This document shows, piece after piece, positions 172-33,998 of a stretch of DNA of 64,000 nt. The DNA comes from an uncultured bacterium. Lineage in GTDB: Bacteria > Oederibacteriota > Oederibacteriia > Oederibacteriales > Oederibacteriaceae. The first letter of the stretch is position 1; each line of letters starts with the position of its first letter. Under the pieces are notes generated by a model. The model saw nothing but the letters and a program-made list of their open reading frames with translations. It was not told the origin of the DNA and did not search any database. Made by a program: the position numbers and the translations under genes. The DNA lies in NCBI GenBank assembly GCA_965112635.1, contig OZ218778.1, positions 2,720,001 to 2,784,000 on the forward strand. Reading direction: 5' to 3'.

Positions 172-3048
172 TCAACGAAGCACGGCGAATTTACCGATTA
201 CGCGTGCTTCCCGGGTGTTCCTTCTGGCCTGGATAGCATAATAATACATACCATTGGCCAAACGGTCATGATGCATATCCAGAAGATCGTAAGGCAGCGT
301 ATAAGTATATAGCGCCACCCCGTTTTCATATTCGATCTGGAGCAAAGGCGAATTGGCCGGGTCGTAGATCGAAAGGGACTGGACAAGACGTATAGAGGTC
401 GTATAGATCTTGAAAATCAATTGGTCCGGCACATCGGTCATCTTGATATAAACCTTCAACCCATTGCCATCCCGGACCGGGTTGGGATAAGGCACATGTT
501 TCATAATCCAAAGAGGCCCGCTGGCTGTCGGTGTGAACGTGGCTGTGTTGGTAAAGGTCATGCTGGAGGTAAGGGTACAACTCGGGGTCACGGTATTTGA
601 AGGAGTAAAAGAATAGGACGGGGTGAGGGTGCAGGTAAAAGTGAAAGTCTGGGTAAAAGTCGCTGTTTGTGTGGCTGTATTGGTATAGCTTGGGGTATTG
701 GTGATCGTGAATGTCTGGCTGGAGGTAAGGGTTTGGGTCGAGGTCATGGTCTGGCTGGCAGTCTGGGTCGCGGTCCCCGTGTAGGACTGGGTAAAAGTCT
801 GGGTAAAGGTCCGGGTCTGGCTGGCAGTCTGGGTCGCGGTTCCCGTGTAGGACTGGGTAAAAGTCTGGGTAAAAGTCCGGGTCTGGCTGAAAGTCATGGT
901 CTGGGTGGCAGTCTGGGTCGCCGTTCCCGTGTAGGACTGGGTAAAAGTCAGGCTGGAAGTCAGGGTCAGACTGGGAGTCAGGGTCTGAGTTGCCGTAAGC
1001 GTAAAAGTGGTTGTGGTGGTCACTGTCCCGGTCAGGGACGAGGTCAGGGTGCTGGTGGCCGTTTGGCTGGGGCCAGGCGTGAAAGTCTGGGTCGGCGTGG
1101 AGGTAGCAGTCCCCGTCATGGTCGAAGTTCTGGTCGGTGTCTGGGTGGCTGTTTGGGTGATTGTGCCGGTCGTCGTACAAGTACCGGTGGGTGTTCCGGT
1201 ATAGGTCGAGGTTGACGTCCGCGTATAGGTCATGGTCGGCGTGTAATTTTGCGGAGGGCATAAAGTGAGGTCATCCACCCAAATCGTATGGCTACCCATC
1301 TGGGTGGAGTCCAGGATGATACCTAGATCATAGATGTCGTTGAATAAAGGCATGGTGCCCCCGCTCGGGTGTGCAGTAAAAGAGGATGGCAGGTAAAAAG
1401 TAAATCTGGTCCATGCGTTGGTCGCTGTCTGTTGCGATGACCACGCCTGGTTAAAAAGCGGATAATCCCTTATCTGCACGCGAAATCTCTCTCCTCCCAC
1501 GCTCCCCTTGACCCAGATGGATAACTGGGTGTAGTTGGTCCAATTGGTCAGTGTTCCCAAAGAATTAAAAAATGACACCCATCCGTTTGGCTGCATATTC
1601 CAGGTGAGATTCATGGAATATCCCGCTCCGCCGTGATTATTGGCGCCATCATAGGTAGCGGTCCCCGTGGTGGTGGTATTGCTTGTGCTGTCATATCCGG
1701 AAGGGAGTATGGCGGTGATGCCGCCGCTGCTGGTCGGGTCCGTGCCGCCGTTATAGTCCGCGATTGTATCGAACGTTGAGCACGGAGTTGGATTAGGGGT
1801 CGGAGTCACAATAATTTCATCCGCCCCGATACAAGGCGGGTTTTGCCGCGGATGCAGGTAAATATCCTGGGTCACTTCGGGCAAACTCACTCCCTGCGCA
1901 ATGGCTCCCACTGCCTGGGCCGTCAGGTCCAGGTTGTTGGCCGCGGGATTGACCCAGTAATTCGCCGGGGTGCCCAGGTAATTGTTGCTGACAACCCCGG
2001 ACGTCAAACCCGAGGTGTCCAGTTGGCCGTCGATCAGGTTATTTTCGATATTTGTATTGGTGATCGTATTATAGGCAATGCAGCGGATACCCCTCGCCCC
2101 GTCATCCGGCCGGTAACAGCTGTTATTGTAAATTTTGCAGCCGTCCACCCAGCCCATTTCAATGCAGCAATCGACCGGGTTGGAGATGTAATTGTTCATG
2201 ACGGTCATATTCTGCCCGCTTATTTCACCGCAGCCGTAGAGCCCCAAACTGACCCCCCTGTCGCAATTTAAGATCTTGTTTCGTTGAAGAATGCAATTTT
2301 TACATCCCACCCAGAGTTGAAAGGCCGACCTCCCGCCTCCGTCGGCTCCTTTGATGTTCAAAAAAGTATTATCCTGGAAAGTCCAGCTATCCAAACGCAT
2401 CATATCAATGCCGGCGATATAGTCTCCGTTAAAGATCCAGCATGTGTTAGGGAGTTTGTTGTCCTCAAAGTAGCAGTTTTGCACCAGTCCGTACAAAGCG
2501 TGCGTATTGCCTGAGGTATCGGCAGTCCCTTTGATACAGCGGAATCCAAAATTGATGAACCGGCAGTTGAGTATCTCGATATCCTGGGGCGAGGAATAGG
2601 AATTCACTTTTATCCCGTAGCAGGCTTCGGTAAAGGTGATGGCCGAGATGGTCAGCGAGGTGCAAGTAGCAAAATCCGCGACCCACAGGCAGTCATTATT
2701 GCCTTCCCCCGGATGGGTTGAACAGGGCATTGAGCCATCATCAATAAAACCGATCCCCCGGATGATCACCTTGGTGGGGTCATTGGAAGCGCTGGTGAGA
2801 ACGACATTATTTGCGTTGTTGAACCTCAAGGGGCTGTTCTCGTTCAGCTGGTAGGTCCCGTCTGCCAGTTTGATGCAATCCCCTGGCTGGGCATTGGTTA
2901 CGGCGTTATACAAAGCGACCACATTAGCCACATTAACCGTATGCAGACAGGCTGCCTGGGCGGGAATAGCCAAATGAATGGCCGCGAGGACCAAGAGAAG
3001 TCCATAAAATGAAAAAAGAACCTTTCGGTATGCCCCTGTGTCTGACAA
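172..3048 (-). CDS. Secreted right-handed beta-helix (pectin-lyase-like) protein with CBM11/CIA30-like module, Thr/Ser stalk and T9SS type-A-like C-terminal domain
   Basis: Signal peptide ending AQA; PGDCIKLADGTY beta-helix start; QLSIWVKG...FRVQIRD...WVDDLTL CBM-like; ~240 aa T-x repeat; C-terminal YPNP...KIYT...LANGMYYY...KFAVLR; GAGGGAG RBS before TTG. Confidence 0.85.
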   Translation of the reverse strand: MSDTGAYRKVLFSFYGLLLVLAAIHLAIPAQAACLHTVNVANVVALYNAVTNAQPGDCIKLADGTYQLNENSPLRFNNANNVVLTSASNDPTKVIIRGIGFIDDGSMPCSTHPGEGNNDCLWVADFATCTSLTISAITFTEACYGIKVNSYSSPQDIEILNCRFINFGFRCIKGTADTSGNTHALYGLVQNCYFEDNKLPNTCWIFNGDYIAGIDMMRLDSWTFQDNTFLNIKGADGGGRSAFQLWVGCKNCILQRNKILNCDRGVSLGLYGCGEISGQNMTVMNNYISNPVDCCIEMGWVDGCKIYNNSCYRPDDGARGIRCIAYNTITNTNIENNLIDGQLDTSGLTSGVVSNNYLGTPANYWVNPAANNLDLTAQAVGAIAQGVSLPEVTQDIYLHPRQNPPCIGADEIIVTPTPNPTPCSTFDTIADYNGGTDPTSSGGITAILPSGYDSTSNTTTTGTATYDGANNHGGAGYSMNLTWNMQPNGWVSFFNSLGTLTNWTNYTQLSIWVKGSVGGERFRVQIRDYPLFNQAWSSQQTATNAWTRFTFYLPSSFTAHPSGGTMPLFNDIYDLGIILDSTQMGSHTIWVDDLTLCPPQNYTPTMTYTRTSTSTYTGTPTGTCTTTGTITQTATQTPTRTSTMTGTATSTPTQTFTPGPSQTATSTLTSSLTGTVTTTTTFTLTATQTLTPSLTLTSSLTFTQSYTGTATQTATQTMTFSQTRTFTQTFTQSYTGTATQTASQTRTFTQTFTQSYTGTATQTASQTMTSTQTLTSSQTFTITNTPSYTNTATQTATFTQTFTFTCTLTPSYSFTPSNTVTPSCTLTSSMTFTNTATFTPTASGPLWIMKHVPYPNPVRDGNGLKVYIKMTDVPDQLIFKIYTTSIRLVQSLSIYDPANSPLLQIEYENGVALYTYTLPYDLLDMHHDRLANGMYYYAIQARRNTREARVIGKFAVLR
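751..950. repeat. Intragenic 66-bp tandem repeat encoding TFTQTFTQSYTGTATQTASQT units
   Basis: Near-identical units start at 751 and 817, with a partial third copy at about 901-949. Confidence 0.8.
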
Positions 3049-3141
3049 CTTTTCTCCCTCGCCAAGTACTCTAAAGGCGCGTCAGTCGGCTAGCTCTCCC
3101 ATCATGGACTCGCGTCCACGATCGGCTTTTCGCTTGTTCTT
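3016..3141 (-). ncRNA. Candidate c-di-GMP-I (GEMM-I)-like riboswitch, copy 1
   Basis: Minus strand AAAAGCCG-ATCGTGGAC(GCGA)GTCCATGAT-GGGAGAGCTA...CTGAC/GTCAG...ACAGGGGCATACCGA; shares anchors with copy at 11541-11626; GNRA-capped P2. Confidence 0.6.
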
Positions 3142-9945: not shown

Positions 9946-10210
9946 GTGGGTCCCCCACGGGCACAGCCCGTGGCTCCCACAAAACATTCAGCCCGCCTCC
10001 GGCGGACTGACCAAAGGAGTAACCTCCTTTGGAATCCTCTCGGAGAGGGTTGATTGGTCTGAATGACCAATCAACGGGCACATTCCTTTGTTCCTTATGA
10101 AGGAGTGCCCAGGATATAATTGTATGTACTATCGTTTTTTCATCCACGGGCAGAGCTCGCCTAGTCGGCGAAGCGACTGGCCCGTGGTCTTCGAAACGCT
10201 GATCCGATAA
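9946..10210 (-). repeat. Non-coding palindromic element (REP/PATE-like), copy B, inverted relative to copy A
   Basis: Same terminal hairpins (9955-9973; 10144-10187) and same core as 6045-6242, with extra internal hairpins at 10049-10075 and 10076-10110. Confidence 0.8.
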
Positions 10211-10599
10211 GCCCAATCCGCAGTTGTCATAGCTGTTGTCATAAAACCTATTGCAAAATAAGCTTTTTACATAGTTGTCCTCAACATTCAGGTCGAAAAA
10301 CCAGCTTAATATTTATGCCCCACTTTTATACACGAACTTTTTAGGCATGATTTTGTCCTTATTAAATAAGGAGATTTATACACGAACTCCAAAAGGTGCA
10401 CAATTATTTATGTCACATTTCGGGTCCGCTGTCCCCCAACCAGCGAGACCCGCGCCGAAGCCAAGGGTGTACTTCGGCAGGTATGCCACTATGTGCCCCA
10501 ACCCTGGCAAATCCACCCCACATTATTCTTATAAAATAAGGTGAGCTATTTTTGATAGAATACCCTTATAAAACAATGACTTTAGCCCGGAGAGGTGAT

Positions 10600-11298
10600 A
10601 TGCCACTATTTGATCCCAGTTTGCCGGAAGAATTTAAGACGGGCACGATGCTCGACGAGTACATGATCATCTATAAAGGGGTCATGCTGCAGGGCAAGAT
10701 ACTCACCCAGTTTGGCGAATATAAGGAGATTCTCACAGAAGCATCCGGTGACTTTCAGCGGAAATTTAAAATAGGCCAGCCCGGAGGACTTACAGACGGT
10801 CTTTTTATGACCTGGCTCCATCTTGATTTTCGTTTTGGTAAGACACAGGAGACGATTTGTGAACGTTTTCTTCAAGAACAAGGCAGTAAGCTCAATCACC
10901 CTGGACCGACCTGCCTTCGTCACCTAGCGGACAGCTACTGTACTCTCTATCAGCTCAAATCCTACCGTGATGAAAGGATCGTTTTTGAGGAAATTATGAC
11001 AGGAAAAGAATGGACTATCATTCGGGTGAACGAGCCCTTTGAGCTAAAGGTCGTCCCAGGGAATATTTGGTATGTCAGGCTTGTTGGTACTCCAGAGCAG
11101 GCTTTTGTTTTTATCGCACCCTTTATCTTTCCCGCAGAAGCGAAAGATGATCTGGTTAAGTTAGTCAGAGTGATGCGGAAAGATTACGAGGCATATGTAC
11201 AAAAGACGAAAATGGCACCAGAAAATATATTCAAGAATTTCAGCAAAGCCTCACTAATGGCTTGGGCTGAATATCTAATGTTAGGGAAAAAGAGTTAA
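10600..11298 (+). CDS. Hypothetical protein resembling the domain often associated with SEC-C motif proteins
   Basis: Long ORF; ATG 10600 after GAGGTG; S..TLYQ...EEIMTG.EW.I...PG.IW..R pattern; no SEC-C cysteines present. Confidence 0.65.
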   Translation: MPLFDPSLPEEFKTGTMLDEYMIIYKGVMLQGKILTQFGEYKEILTEASGDFQRKFKIGQPGGLTDGLFMTWLHLDFRFGKTQETICERFLQEQGSKLNHPGPTCLRHLADSYCTLYQLKSYRDERIVFEEIMTGKEWTIIRVNEPFELKVVPGNIWYVRLVGTPEQAFVFIAPFIFPAEAKDDLVKLVRVMRKDYEAYVQKTKMAPENIFKNFSKASLMAWAEYLMLGKKS

Positions 11299-11505
11299 GG
11301 AGCGGGATCCGTTCGCTAAGAGCTTACGCCGCTAAACCGTTAATCTGCTCATGCCATCTATTGCCGATTTGTATCAGCAATGAATCAATTTGCGACGATA
11401 CATTTTGATACATATTCCGAATGCTGCGAAGGGCATAGGATAGTAAAAGCAAGAAAACCCTTAAAATACAAGCTAATTTAAAGCCCTTAATATCTATATG
11501 TATTA

Positions 11506-11533
11506 TTGACAAATGTTAAAGATTTTATAAAAT
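11506..11533 (+). promoter_or_regulatory. Sigma70-type promoter
   Basis: TTGACA (11506-11511), 16-bp spacer, TAAAAT (11528-11533); predicted TSS near 11540, at the start of the riboswitch-like motif. Confidence 0.7.
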
Positions 11534-11540
11534 TAACTCC

Positions 11541-11626
11541 TCATTGAAAAAGCCGACTCTGCTGAAAGGCTGAGTGGGAGAGCTATCCTCCCTGAAAGAC
11601 AGGGGAACAAGGGGCATACCGATGGA
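11541..11626 (+). ncRNA. Candidate c-di-GMP-I (GEMM-I)-like riboswitch, copy 2
   Basis: P1 TCATTG/CGATGG; AAAAGCCG-ACTCTGCT(GAAA)GGCTGAGT-GGGAGAGCTA; P3 CCCTG/CAGGG; ACAAGGGGCATACCGATGG 3' end resembles the Vc2 3' end GGGGTTACCGATGG. Confidence 0.65.
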
Positions 11627-12509
11627 ACAAAGAAAAGTTAAGGCCAAAATTCCTTCCAAATCAGTTTGCTTCCCCAAAAACCAAAGCCAAGACACAAGAA
11701 CATTCACCGCAAAAACTATCACATCTGTTTTGATCCTTCTTTTTTCCGTCTTCTATATTTATAGACCGTCCGTTGCCCAGACGCAGGATGAGCAGGAGAC
11801 GCAACAAATAGTAAGCCAGATCCAAACCAACCAGAACAAAATCCAAACACTCCAAGCGGATGTCACGGTGGACCACACCATAAACTCAAAGACCAAAACC
11901 TTACGCTATCACTTTGGGATTGACCTGAAGAATATGCGGATACATGTGCAGATGCTGAACGGGCTGACCCCTATAGATGTTATCGTTGATGGGACAGATA
12001 TATCTATAAAAGGGAAAGACGGGATGTGGCGCAAAAAGGAGCAGTCGGCAAAGACAAAAGAGGTACTCAAGAATATGTTAGGAGAGAATTTTAATGGTTC
12101 GATAAACTCACCACAGGGCAAGCAGGACATGAAGGATATAACCAAGAATTATGAGATCAAAAGGAACAGGAGTGCGGATGGGTGGCTTGCGTCATTCGGC
12201 AACAACAGGGCAGTAGATTTTGTGCCGAAAGGGAAACCCTTCGGCGGAGCTCAGGGCGGGCAAAAAATGTTTGCCCGAAAAACAGCGTGGATAGACCGCA
12301 ACACAGGCGTCACCATGGAGTCGGCTGTTTATGATGAAAATGGGAAGGAAATCGTACACCATAAGACAAAGAGAGTAGATACGATAAATAACTGCAACCT
12401 TGCGACAGAGACAGAGAGCGACAGCCAGACACCCCAAGGAAAAATCCACAGCCATAGAGTTATGCAAAATGTATTTATAAACCAAGACATAAGCGGGGAG
12501 TTTAAGTAG
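11622..12509 (+). CDS. Exported protein, LolA-like/outer-membrane lipoprotein-sorting fold
   Basis: Hydrophobic signal/anchor; IQTLQADVTV start and TAWID...TG....AVYDENGKE pattern typical of LolA-like proteins; ATG 11622 after AAGGGG. Confidence 0.65.
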   Translation: MEQRKVKAKIPSKSVCFPKNQSQDTRTFTAKTITSVLILLFSVFYIYRPSVAQTQDEQETQQIVSQIQTNQNKIQTLQADVTVDHTINSKTKTLRYHFGIDLKNMRIHVQMLNGLTPIDVIVDGTDISIKGKDGMWRKKEQSAKTKEVLKNMLGENFNGSINSPQGKQDMKDITKNYEIKRNRSADGWLASFGNNRAVDFVPKGKPFGGAQGGQKMFARKTAWIDRNTGVTMESAVYDENGKEIVHHKTKRVDTINNCNLATETESDSQTPQGKIHSHRVMQNVFINQDISGEFK

Positions 12510-12554
12510 AAAAGAAATCAATATAAAAGTAGAAAATTTTAAGGAGGTCAGGAT

Positions 12555-13379
12555 ATGGGGAAGAAAACATTGTTTTATTTTTTAATTTCATTTCTTTTAG
12601 TGTTTGTTGGAATGGCAAGTAATGGTGAAATTCAAGCCGCAAGTAAGAAGCAAGTCCTGCCCCCTACTTCTTTGTCCGGACAAGCGCCTGAGGATATAGG
12701 GGGGATAGACCCTGGAGAAAAAAACGACAAGCAAGTATGGATTCAATTAATTCATAATTCTGGAACATCTACACATCCCCTTTTTTGTATTCAATCCTTG
12801 ATAGGTGAGGGTGATGAAAGAACCTTGGAGTATATAAAGTTTGTTTTGATTCAAAGTGGTATTGAGCAAAGCGATGAAAATATCAATTTGTTGAATAATC
12901 TTGCGCATACTATGGCGAAGTATTGGGTTTGCATCGGTGGGGTGGATAGAAATCCAACATATTATGAGCCCTTTATAAAAACCTATCAAAAGGAACTTGA
13001 CGATATGACAGAAAGGTTTTTTAAAAAGTTTAACCGCAAAGAAAGAGTGCGCCTATATTGTGTGATTGAGTGGTTTAGTTTAGCAGAAGGTGCCCTTAAG
13101 AAGGCTGTAGCAGTGAGACAAAAAGAAAAAATTGGGCTCTCGGATGTAAACTCTCGCACTATTGATTTATTAAATAAAAGGTTTCCAAATAATAATCAAC
13201 AAGTAATAAAGGATTTTTTAGACACAGTTTCCTATGTCAGGCCGATACCTTATCCTAAGGGGCACCCCAATCGTCATGAGACAGATAAATATGTTATGGA
13301 AAAAAAGAAGGAACGCTCTGAATTCTTAAGGAACCTTAAAACCTTTGACCACTTCAAGGCCCTAAAAACGGAGAAATAA
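12555..13379 (+). CDS. Secreted hypothetical protein
   Basis: AAGGAGG RBS; N-terminal signal peptide; no recognisable motif. Confidence 0.75.
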   Translation: MGKKTLFYFLISFLLVFVGMASNGEIQAASKKQVLPPTSLSGQAPEDIGGIDPGEKNDKQVWIQLIHNSGTSTHPLFCIQSLIGEGDERTLEYIKFVLIQSGIEQSDENINLLNNLAHTMAKYWVCIGGVDRNPTYYEPFIKTYQKELDDMTERFFKKFNRKERVRLYCVIEWFSLAEGALKKAVAVRQKEKIGLSDVNSRTIDLLNKRFPNNNQQVIKDFLDTVSYVRPIPYPKGHPNRHETDKYVMEKKKERSEFLRNLKTFDHFKALKTEK

Positions 13380-13382
13380 GTT

Positions 13383-14060
13383 GTGAGACGATTGCAGTTT
13401 TGTATCACTTGCATTTTATTACTTTTAATGCAAATTGCAGGCGCTGATAATTCACCATTTATTGTTACTGCTACTACCAATCCTATGTCTGGCTCAACCA
13501 TAACAAATATATTCTACGTTGCTCTTCCGTTTACAAAAACGAAAGATGATACAACGACAGTATTTGGGATACCTAATTATTCAAACCCGCAAGAGGTTGT
13601 TTTGAAAAGGGTGATAGTTAGTTATAAAGATTCAAATAATCATATTTTAAGTGTTATTGCGCCGATAAAAGATGCTGGGCCGTGGAATATTTTTGATAAT
13701 TATTGGTTAGATAATTCAAAGAGAGACAGAAATGGATTTAAGGTTTTTATTAGTCCTTCTCCTAATTCTACTGATATTCAAAATAACTGTAATGTGTCTG
13801 TTACTACTGGCCCAGTGCCTGATGAGAATGTCCCCGAGGCGGAAGCAGCATTCCCTCGCTTATTAACATCTTTTCATCTGGGCTATAGCGCATCTAAACC
13901 AGGGGACCCTAAAAATCCGGCAACATATTGTAATTTAAATTGTGACTGCCCTGTTAATCACATAAATTTTTTGAGATTTGATGGAACGAATATTCAACCC
14001 GGGACACAACAACAAACAAATGGAGTAAAGTTTGGTCGAATCCAACTGATGTTGCCATGA
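13383..14060 (+). CDS. Secreted protein with RlpA/DPBB-like domain, probably truncated
   Basis: Signal peptide; FYVALP...API.DAGPWN..DNYW motif; ends about 30 nt before the transposase inverted repeat. Confidence 0.6.
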   Translation: MRRLQFCITCILLLLMQIAGADNSPFIVTATTNPMSGSTITNIFYVALPFTKTKDDTTTVFGIPNYSNPQEVVLKRVIVSYKDSNNHILSVIAPIKDAGPWNIFDNYWLDNSKRDRNGFKVFISPSPNSTDIQNNCNVSVTTGPVPDENVPEAEAAFPRLLTSFHLGYSASKPGDPKNPATYCNLNCDCPVNHINFLRFDGTNIQPGTQQQTNGVKFGRIQLMLP

Positions 14061-14091: not shown

Positions 14092-15000
14092 AATCGGGGT
14101 CAGGTCTTCACATATCAGTTTTGCTTCTCTCTGTGCCGCCTGACCCTCATGCTTACCGTTGTATAATGCACGCCTAAATGCCTCGCCACTTCTACCATCT
14201 TATATCCCTCTTTAACGCCCTCATCAATCTCCGCGGCTGTCCCGCCTTGCTTAAATATCTCAGCCAAACCTTTTCTCAAAGGTCTCTTGTGTGCTTGCGG
14301 TATCTCCCTCTGCCTCTCATTGATCTTATGCTTCCGGATAAAAGCCTCGCTCCCATAGTAGATCTGCCCGGTCAGCTTTTCCCAGGGGCTTTCCTTTAGC
14401 CCGATTCCCTCCCTGACAAACTCCTTATACCGTTTTACCGACTCCCGCCTGTTATTCCCGAACTGTTCCAGGATCCATTTCCCGTCCATCCAACCCAGCC
14501 GGTGCTGCGGTTTCAAAGTCCCCCGGTAACTGCTCCACCTGTATTGTTCCGGCCTTTCCACCATCTTCGCTCTCACCGGGTTTAGCACCACATACCGGCA
14601 CAGCTCTAATGAATGCGCCCCTTTTTCCACATGAATAGCCTTATACCTGCCCTGGAATAAATGCCCCACCCGACTATGCTCATGGTTAAAGGATTGCGTA
14701 TAGACCCCGTTGAGATGCCGCATCCCCTGCGAAAGGCTGGCTTCTCTGGTCTCGATCAGTAAATGATAGTGGTTGCTCATCAGGCAATAGGCGTGGCAGT
14801 TCCAGGAATAACGGGAAAGGGTCTCAGCCAGAACAAGCAAAAACTTCTTCCGGTCAGCATCATTAAAATATATTTTTTGCCGTCCGTTGCCCCGGCTCGT
14901 GATGTGGTAAACAGCTCCCTCATATTGCAATCTCAATGGTCTCGTCATAGTTCAACATCCTATCATGCTAAACCTTATATGTGAAGACCTGACCCCAATT
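14092..15000. mobile_element. Y1-transposase element bounded by inverted repeats
   Basis: GGGGTCAGGTCTTCACATAT (14096-14115) and exact reverse complement (14977-14996); extends to 24 bp with 1 mismatch. Confidence 0.8.
14115..14948 (-). CDS. REP-associated tyrosine transposase-like (Y1/HUH) with C-terminal HTH
   Basis: YHITSRGN, YCLMSNHYHLL (HUH), GHLFQGRYK, YVVLNPVRA, WSSY; C-terminal EVARHLGVHYTTVS. Confidence 0.93.
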   Translation of the reverse strand: MTRPLRLQYEGAVYHITSRGNGRQKIYFNDADRKKFLLVLAETLSRYSWNCHAYCLMSNHYHLLIETREASLSQGMRHLNGVYTQSFNHEHSRVGHLFQGRYKAIHVEKGAHSLELCRYVVLNPVRAKMVERPEQYRWSSYRGTLKPQHRLGWMDGKWILEQFGNNRRESVKRYKEFVREGIGLKESPWEKLTGQIYYGSEAFIRKHKINERQREIPQAHKRPLRKGLAEIFKQGGTAAEIDEGVKEGYKMVEVARHLGVHYTTVSMRVRRHREKQN

Positions 15001-15004
15001 ATAT

Positions 15005-15041
15005 AAAAAAAGGGAAGACCTGGTTGGTCTTCCCTTTTTTT
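15005..15041 (-). terminator. Rho-independent terminator (bidirectional)
   Basis: AAAAAAAGGGAAGACC-TGGTT-GGTCTTCCCTTTTTTT. Confidence 0.85.
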
Positions 15042-15052
15042 GTCTTTAAAGT

Positions 15053-32287: not shown

Positions 32288-33998
32288 AGCCTTCGTAGTG
32301 GTTGGTCAAGGGCATCCGGCGGTCCCGTCCAAAGGCTTTGGGAGTGATCTTGACCCCTGGCGGCGCCTGCCTGCGCTTATATTCGCTTTTATCCACCATC
32401 CCGATCACCTGCCTGACCACCGCCCGGCTGAAACCCGACCCGGCGATCCTCTCCAAAGACTCGTCCTTTTCTACGTATTTTTTCAGGATGGGGTCCAGGA
32501 CAGGATAGGGCGGCAGGGAATCCGAATCTTTTTGGTTTTTCCGCAACTCCGCCGTGGGCGTCCGGCTGATAATATGCTCCGGGATGAGATAAAACCCGGC
32601 GGCCAGGTTCCGGGTGCGGCAAAGACTGTAAACTTTTTCCTTTAACACATCTTTTAATACGGCAAACCCCCCGGCCATATCACCGTAAAGCGTGGCGTAA
32701 CCCATGCTCATCTCGCTCTTGTTGCCCGTGGTCAGGACCAGCCACCCGAATTTGTTGGAAAGGGCCATGAGCAAAGAACCCCGGATGCGCGCCTGCAGGT
32801 TCTCCTCCGCGATATCCCACCCGGCCCCTTTGAAAGCGGGCTTGAGAACCTTCAAGTATTCCCTGAACATAGGTTCGATATTGAGGGACATCAAGGGGAT
32901 CCCCAGGTTGTCCGCCAGTTCCTGGGCGTCCCGCAGGCTGACCGGACTGGAAAAACGGGACGGCATGAAGACGAGGTGGACGTTCCGCGTTCCGATAGCG
33001 TCACCGGCGACCACGCTGGTCAGGGCCGAGTCCACCCCGCCGCTCAGCCCCACCACCACGTCCGTAAAACCGTTTTTCCGGATGTAATCCCGCGTGCCCA
33101 GGACCAGGGCCCGGTAGATCTCTTCCGTCGCGGAGAGAACAGGGGCCAGGGCTGGCTGCAAAGCTCCAGTTTCATTCCCGCCGGTCCTGACAGCTTTGGC
33201 CGTTACCCTATCCACCCCGGGAAGACCCTTCGGCCGTTTTTCCCGGGCCGGCAGCTCGATATCGAACACGGCCATTTCTTCCTCGAACGCCCTGCAGCGG
33301 GCCAAAACCTCGCCCCGGTCGTTATACACCAAGCTGTGGCCGTCAAAGACCAGCTCGTCCTGCCCGCCTACAAGATTGAGGTAAGCGATAAAGACCTTAT
33401 GGTCCAAAGAGCGCCTTTTGAGGATCGCCGCCCTCTCCCGCCATTTCTGGAGATGATAGGGCGAGGAACTGATGTTGAGGATCAGCTGGGCTCCGGCAGC
33501 CACCTGCCGGCCCGTCGGGCCCTCGTCGGACCAGATGTCCTCGCAGATGTTCACGCCCACCCGAACCTTTTTGAGGTCCAGGACCAGGGGCCGCTGTCCC
33601 GGCGTGAAATACCTTTTTTCGTCAAAAACCCCGTAATTGGGAAGTAAAATCTTGTGGTAAACACCAAGCAGCCGTCCGGCCTGGATGATCCCCGCGGCGT
33701 TGAAAATTTTGCCGTCCTTTTGGTCCACGAACCCGACCACGCAGACCAGCCTTGGTGTTTTTGAGGAGAAATGGACCACGCGGTGCAGGGCCTTGAGGTT
33801 GTCCCGGATAAAGGTGGGTTTCAAGAGCAGGTCTTCGGGGGGATAGCCGGTCAGGACCAGCTCGGGAAAACAGACAATATCCGCTCTTTGGCTGTCCGCC
33901 TGCTGGATATAGTTGCAGACTTTTTCTACATTGCCGTCCAGGTCGCCGACCGTCGCATTGATCTGGCCTAGCCCTAGACGCAGGGTGTTTTTATCCAA
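32277..33998 (-). CDS. nadE: Glutamine-dependent NAD+ synthetase
   Basis: Nitrilase domain (FPEL..TGYPPEDL, ICEDIW) plus GLSGGVDS, ENLQARIR, TGNKSE, GYATLYGD. Confidence 0.97.
   Translation of the reverse strand: MDKNTLRLGLGQINATVGDLDGNVEKVCNYIQQADSQRADIVCFPELVLTGYPPEDLLLKPTFIRDNLKALHRVVHFSSKTPRLVCVVGFVDQKDGKIFNAAGIIQAGRLLGVYHKILLPNYGVFDEKRYFTPGQRPLVLDLKKVRVGVNICEDIWSDEGPTGRQVAAGAQLILNISSSPYHLQKWRERAAILKRRSLDHKVFIAYLNLVGGQDELVFDGHSLVYNDRGEVLARCRAFEEEMAVFDIELPAREKRPKGLPGVDRVTAKAVRTGGNETGALQPALAPVLSATEEIYRALVLGTRDYIRKNGFTDVVVGLSGGVDSALTSVVAGDAIGTRNVHLVFMPSRFSSPVSLRDAQELADNLGIPLMSLNIEPMFREYLKVLKPAFKGAGWDIAEENLQARIRGSLLMALSNKFGWLVLTTGNKSEMSMGYATLYGDMAGGFAVLKDVLKEKVYSLCRTRNLAAGFYLIPEHIISRTPTAELRKNQKDSDSLPPYPVLDPILKKYVEKDESLERIAGSGFSRAVVRQVIGMVDKSEYKRRQAPPGVKITPKAFGRDRRMPLTNHYEGYES

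Follow-up and report, generated by a model that had tools for sequence, protein, structure and literature searches.

How is the gene at 11622 controlled? In the 64-kb window (the whole stretch of DNA that was analysed), this gene is preceded by a three-helix leader RNA of 85 nt (11541-11625) that begins 7 nt past the end of a promoter. The arrangement raises the question of what kind of RNA this leader is, which signal it may read, and how that signal might reach the ribosome.

The start of the gene: promoter, fold and start codon

The leader occupies the end of an intergenic region, together with a sigma-70-type promoter (Table 1). This TTGACA-16-TAAAAT promoter, which had been proposed from the letters of the DNA, is indeed present, with 11 of 12 consensus bases, and it is the top one among four promoter-like sites in 11250-11750, where shuffled sequences gave a mean of 1.0. 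Transcription would start near 11540, about 7 nt past TAAAAT, that is, at the start of the structured RNA.

The minimum free energy (MFE) fold of 11540-11640 formed the three-way junction unaided, at -26.7 kcal/mol, and the fold z-score of this single sequence was weak (-1.52). As the original prediction had it, P1 (UCAUUG/CGAUGG) pairs over the ATG at 11622 in this fold. The same prediction took the ribosome-binding site AAGGGG to be the 3' strand of P3, and the MFE fold agrees, with the GGGG of the Shine-Dalgarno sequence inside P3 and ending 7 nt before the ATG. Every sequence feature of that prediction lies at the position it had been given.

A revision of the ORF start from 11574 to 11622 had been suggested as well and is sound. 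The GTG at 11574 was rejected as a start codon, being part of the conserved aptamer core GUGGGAGAGCUA; all six other aligned copies read G-rGGGArAGCUA at this core (first base A or G). We place the start at ATG 11622 because the copies of the same design (type B, described below) share their start-codon offset directly after ACCG.

Table 1. Positions of the leader, its helices and the associated genes in the window.
Feature	Position	Strand	Basis and detail
Intergenic region	11299-11621		Promoter-leader unit at its end
Sigma-70-type promoter	11506-11533	+	TTGACA 11506-11511, 16-nt spacer, TAAAAT 11528-11533
P1, 5' strand UCAUUG	11541-11546	+	MFE; partner 11620-11625, 6 bp including two G-U
J1/2 AAAAAG	11547-11552	+	G11552 = Vc2 G20 equivalent
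P2	11553-11578	+	MFE, pair counts; closing pairs C11553-G11578 (Vc2 G21-C46, flipped) and C11554-G11577 (Vc2 C22-G45)
P2, upper part	11557-11563/11568-11574	+	7-bp stem above a small GA/UG internal loop
P2 GAAA tetraloop	11564-11567	+	GNRA loop in every copy
J2/3 AGA	11579-11581	+	A11579 = A47, G11580 = position 48, A11581 = A49 equivalents
P3	11582-11615	+	MFE; GCU 11582-11584/GGC 11613-11615, CCU 11587-11589/AGG 11610-11612
P3 inner hairpin	11590-11594/11600-11604	+	MFE; 3' internal loop GAACA 11605-11609
Shine-Dalgarno AAGGGG	11609-11614	+	GGGG 11611-11614 in P3 3' strand 11610-11615
J3/1 AUAC	11616-11619	+	C11619 = Vc2 C92 equivalent
P1, 3' strand CGAUGG	11620-11625	+	MFE; contains start codon ATG 11622-11624
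Putatively regulated ORF, 295 aa	11622-12509	+	ORF translation; N-terminal signal/anchor segment
ORFs 2 and 3 of three secreted-looking ORFs	12555-13379, 13383-14060	+	ORF translation
Copy 1 (type A)	3016-3141	-	R1 85.2 bits, training copy; P1 AAGAAC/GUUCUU, then directly a U run
Copy 1 gene, 958-aa beta-helix/CBM11 secreted protein	172-3048	-	Copy 1 overlaps its start

Copies, covariation and relation to GEMM-I

The genome is a single contig of 2.876 Mb, in which an exact pattern of the core found three copies of the element, the pattern with one mismatch found five real ones, and a looser regular expression found seven. The seven copies were aligned, and a covariance model (R1) was built from them with a structure set by hand. 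When RNAalifold was given the raw MAFFT alignment, the variable length of the P3 insert led it to wrong pairs in P3, and the hand-set structure was used instead and then checked. A search of the genome with R1 returned ten copies of at least 50 bits; the scores of the seven training copies are circular, and the three copies from outside the training set scored 67, 57.4 and 50.4 bits. One further match, at 1503426 on the forward strand (19.6 bits), was excluded as dubious. Eight of the ten copies are of the variant type and two are canonical-like. R1 also found the second element predicted in the window, copy 1, which is real. Among the copies the inner part of P3 ranges from about 25 to about 100 nt. 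All ten lie 5' of an ORF on the same strand, which they either overlap at its start or precede by no more than about 135 nt, measured to the open frame.

Covariation was scored on 13 distinct sequences, ten from this genome and three from another genus. Standard pairs filled 91.6% of pair cells, compared with 39-51% when partners were slid by 1-3 columns, in an alignment that was fitted to R1 and favours the hand-set structure. Changes on both sides of a pair were found in 16 of 23 pairs, and none of 500 shuffles gave a covariation score as high as that observed. Such compensatory changes affect eight of the nine P2 pairs; the pairs at the base of P3 (helix 4, 96.1% paired) covary. The P2 stems are wholly different in sequence among the copies, capped by GAAA, GUAA, GCGA or GUGA. 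Given the slid-partner control and these differences between P2 stems, the fold is convincing.

At gathering thresholds, Rfam had no match in the window. When 501 nt around the site were searched, RF03167 (c-di-GMP-I-GGC), a member of the c-di-GMP-I clan, was the only family with E < 1, covering 11543-11624 at 17.9 bits (E 0.11; cut-off 59). The site dropped out of an E-value-mode search over the whole window, and a 451-nt Rfam search gave no c-di-GMP-I clan match for copy 1. The search with RF01051, the c-di-GMP-I or GEMM-I riboswitch family, that the original prediction recommended made no call at the site copy either, where RF03167 was the one clan member to appear. Across the genome, RF01051 gave no match at E ≤ 0.001, and the best of the ten copies, at 26.1 bits, stayed below its gathering score of 35 bits.

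Relatives were more informative. Of the 99 genomes of the phylum, 10, from three families, have true RF01051 members that exceed the cut-off. R1 was run against 11 loci of such members and matched five at the same coordinates with E ≤ 1 (33.5, 33.0, 24.7, 16.5 and 15.6 bits); the sites with the three highest of these scores reach 50-59 bits on RF01051. Because R1 recognises bona fide RF01051 sites in relatives, we take the variant to be a descendant of GEMM-I. This is in keeping with the claim that the aptamer is non-canonical: Rfam misses the RNA, yet the model built from it finds true members of the class. Two copies in the genome, 991758 and 1605199, are intermediate: their closing pairs are the canonical GGC...GC, they carry a CCUAAA/UAUGG tetraloop receptor, and their RF01051 scores are 26.1 bits or less. 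Judged from sequence and predicted fold, the leader is very probably a GEMM-I-derived structured RNA, a conclusion that we hold much more firmly than the regulatory reading developed below.

The family name of the top-scoring Rfam model fits less well. RF03167 is broadly alike in architecture, but its 17.9 bits stand against a cut-off of 59, and the position-47 equivalent is A, with no G, in all 13 sequences, an assignment that hinges on which two of three consecutive Gs are paired. In c-di-GMP-I-GGC, GGC would stand for positions 20/47/92, to judge from two consensus lines. The label 'GGC variant' was rejected for this RNA and is probably a register artefact, because RF03167 pairs the first two of the three Gs, whereas the last two are paired both in the MFE fold and when the RNA is aligned to canonical relatives.

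R1 matched in 4 of the 99 phylum genomes, this one included. The other three belong to one genus of another family, with 32.5-39.9 bits (whole-genome E 5e-7 to 6e-5), and Rfam had no match at these sites even at E ≤ 1. Genomes of the genus that we label g7 carry RF01051 matches of 42-55 bits and, in addition, variant sites that Rfam missed. Exact-pattern scans, strict enough that divergent members elsewhere could be missed, yielded 78 stretches of genome contigs with 11 R1 matches at E ≤ 1, and 70 stretches of metagenome contigs with four matches, all of them g7 sequence types. Only three of the 11 genome-contig matches were strong (39.5-39.9 bits), in records titled Candidatus Firestonebacteria; the other eight look like chance. 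The finds of the variant are confined to two lineages within a single small candidate phylum. Literature searches with partial journal coverage found nothing on Firestonebacteria and riboswitches, and no paper on c-di-GMP-I-GGC that dealt with this lineage by title. The element extends one of the most intensively studied classes of signalling riboswitch by a branch that is not annotated, and curated models miss whole candidate-phylum lineages.

The weak R1 matches L051, L060, L076, L066, L071 and L081 had no c-di-GMP-I clan match in Rfam and were not counted as members because their loci had been preselected by pattern. One of them, L051:1194-1278 (-) in a Clostridium thermobutyricum MAG, scored 24.2 bits on R1 and has a variant-like GCC...GGGAAAG core and a non-GNRA P2 loop, with no Rfam call; it may be a chance match or a distant member.

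Output designs and putative target genes

The copies couple the aptamer to the gene in two ways. In three of them (type B), namely window 11541-11625, genome 2658144 (-) and genome 1816749 (+), the start codon lies in the P1 3' strand, directly after ACCG and at an identical offset (CCG|AUG, CCG|GUG and CCG|GUG). Type A comprises five copies of this genome, copy 1 among them, and the copies of the other genus. Here P1 is AAGAAC/GUUCUU or the covarying AAGAUA/UAUCUU and is followed at once by 6-9 U. Because P1 runs directly into a U run, the type-A aptamer would sit inside a terminator-like stem, with P1 as the putative terminator stem; a simple terminator scan made no call at the type-A sites. 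An aptamer embedded in a terminator has reportedly been published for another class, the HMP-PP/thiS riboswitch. The type-A copies resemble it in that the whole aptamer is predicted here to lie within a terminator-like stem. They differ in aptamer class, and the site copy, being type B, would instead occlude the Shine-Dalgarno sequence and the start codon. One aptamer would in this way serve about ten uses in this genome through two output designs, each a minimal platform that employs P1 either to hold the start codon or as a terminator stem.

At copy 1, the signal peptide of the 958-aa protein has a single in-frame ATG, GTG or TTG ahead of it, TTG 3048. This TTG is preceded by GAGGGAG, and both lie within the P3 insert of copy 1. 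Translation from TTG 3048 would make the 3' third of the riboswitch, together with its U run, code for the N-terminus of the protein.

Pfam had no family for any of the three ORFs behind the site copy, and the first of them has a LolA/TP_0789-like match in a protein atlas, which we treat as a lead only. The other variant copies precede two paralogues of about 900 aa, a UPF0164-like barrel candidate, a beta-helix paralogue, and two proteins of 2014 and 612 aa with no clear signal peptide. One of the paralogues of about 900 aa is predicted at 914 aa, and the other is split into open frames of 223 aa and 708 aa. STAS-domain genes follow the two canonical-like copies, and translations from the other genus read as a GAF/PAS-like protein behind the element. 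Most of the eight variant copies thus stand before proteins with N-terminal signal or anchor peptides. The original prediction had spoken of a regulon of secreted proteins; the survey supports a multi-gene regulon and makes it larger than claimed. About eight secreted or surface-protein loci, most with no Pfam family, are pointed to as candidates for second-messenger control, which would offer a handle on their function.

Some side observations concern these genes and their surroundings. Outside the window, two tandem paralogous loci (genome 212663-213443 and 215369-218226) carry one type-A copy each and are alike in a conserved segment upstream, which contains the inverted repeat GGCCAAG...CTTGGCC. 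The split into 223 and 708 aa in the first of them, set against the 914-aa paralogue, suggests a frameshift or a sequencing error. In the window, 10000-14000, which holds the riboswitch operon, is low in GC (0.39-0.44, against about 0.54 elsewhere). The three-gene operon is followed by a gene for an IS200-like Y1 transposase with a C-terminal HTH (14115-14948, -). A weak STnc320-like Rfam match at 14989-15046 (+; 30.3 bits, cut-off 50) covers a strong hairpin with A/T-run flanks between convergent genes and is probably a bidirectional terminator. A sub-threshold match to the SAM_alpha riboswitch lies at 32622-32696 (-; 23.1 bits against 36, E 0.58).

Pocket, ligand and rival readings

The genome has matches to 11 GGDEF, 3 HD_5 (HD-GYP-type) and 17 PilZ domains. 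Searches of this genome (96.9% complete) for EAL and DAC domains gave no match, and no c-di-AMP cyclase was found in it. Because GGDEF, HD_5 and PilZ domains are present, c-di-GMP should be available in this organism, which can synthesise, break down and sense it. Of the eight best GGDEF domains, two, at genome positions 693390-693869 (-) and 1532700-1533158 (+) outside the window, have N for the usual D in the GH..G-D segment and keep GGEEF.

Through the alignment to canonical relatives, we mapped the leader to the numbering of Vc2, the Vibrio cholerae riboswitch that serves as structural reference for RF01051 (Table 1). The variant shares with RF01051 and Vc2 the three-helix junction, the GNRA-capped P2 and a P3 base of AGCU.../...GGC-N-U. 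As in RF01051, J1/2 (AAAAG) ends in the G20 equivalent, J2/3 reads A-R-A, J3/1 ends in the C92 equivalent, and the element sits in 5' leaders of genes for signalling and for secreted or surface proteins. Each of the G20, A47, A49 and C92 equivalents is invariant (13/13). According to PMC6140456, the two guanines of c-di-GMP are recognised in Vc2 by G20 and C92. PMC3764141 and PMC11705072 describe A47 and A48 as key pocket nucleotides, with A48 in a Hoogsteen pair with U90 in Vc2; in their account A49 docks on C22-G45, the C44-G83 pair clamps P2 to P3, and A23, A25, G42 and C44 are among the strongly conserved bases of the class.

Around these fixed points the RNA departs from the class. Position 48 is A or G (G in seven of the 13 sequences, A in six). 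At the G21-C46 pair, 11 sequences have the flipped order C-G and two keep G-C; the C22-G45 position is kept (11 C-G, 2 U-G). The 3x3 loop of A23-A25/G42-C44 has shrunk to GN/UG, and its last 3'-side base is G in all 13 sequences, compared with C in 11 of 11 canonical relatives, which were read by eye. The variant copies also differ from RF01051 in having no 11-nt GAAA receptor, with GAAA, GUAA, GCGA or GUGA as GNRA loops. Because the variant has no C44, a clamp of the Vc2 type (C44-G83) cannot form. As a conjecture, it might be replaced by a G-C pair that joins the P2-loop G to the ACA conserved in the 3' loop of P3. The pair flip, the loss of the clamp and the A48G change would together amount to a natural mutational experiment around the GEMM-I pocket.

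Our preferred reading is that the leader, with promoter and start codon built into one unit, is probably a divergent GEMM-I riboswitch that acts as a c-di-GMP-responsive translational OFF switch. A cyclic dinucleotide, most probably c-di-GMP, would bind at the junction and lock P1 and the base of P3. The locked 3' strand of P3 would bury the GGGG of the Shine-Dalgarno sequence and the locked 3' strand of P1 the AUG, so that translation of the three-gene secreted-protein operon would be off. With no ligand bound, the weak P1, of only six pairs, two of them G-U, would open, and ribosomes could load.

The fold may instead have kept its GEMM-I descent and changed its ligand, to 3'3'-cGAMP, another cyclic or linear dinucleotide, or pGpG, with a separate regulon. 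The flipped pair next to the pocket, the remodelled P2 loop, G48 and the alteration of several class-conserved nucleotides would fit such a change, as would the coexistence of variant and canonical forms in the same genomes, the division of targets between secreted or large proteins (eight variant copies) and STAS genes (two canonical-like copies), and the N for D after GH..G in two of the eight best GGDEF domains. Similar in some respects is GEMM-Ib of Geobacter, which senses 3'3'-cGAMP and, according to PMC6140456, likewise derives from GEMM-I, occurs beside canonical copies and controls genes of extracellular function. However, the same source gives A as base 20 of the cGAMP-sensing GEMM-Ib RNAs, and here the specificity bases are unchanged, with G at 20 and C at 92 throughout. 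Position 48 alternates between A and G within the variant, and one canonical-like copy has G, so that this change resembles neutral drift; the DAC search of the genome came back empty. We therefore consider a changed ligand unlikely, if worth keeping in view. The same low probability applies to the wider proposal that the variant is a distinct GEMM-I subclass, responding to another signal or at a very different c-di-GMP set-point and, alongside the STAS-controlling copies, in charge of a separate regulon made up of secreted and giant surface proteins.

The c-di-GMP switch that we prefer was also weighed against two readings with no sensor at all. The leader could be a structured RNA that binds a protein or governs stability, or a decayed riboswitch that acts as a constitutive damper or terminator. 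Such a role would be consistent with scores below the Rfam thresholds and with the absence of two features of the parent class, the conserved internal loop and the tertiary pair, but the junction nucleotides are invariant and the three helices covary across two families, as in a maintained pocket, and ten maintained copies have two different expression platforms wired to P1; we regard this reading as quite improbable. A chance resemblance, in which an AT-rich intergenic region happened to offer a promoter-like match and accidental hairpins, would accommodate the single-sequence z-score of only -1.52 and the Rfam E of 0.11 in the 501-nt search. It is nevertheless hardly credible, given ten copies with compensatory changes, a covariation score that no shuffle reached, and independent matches in three genomes of another genus.
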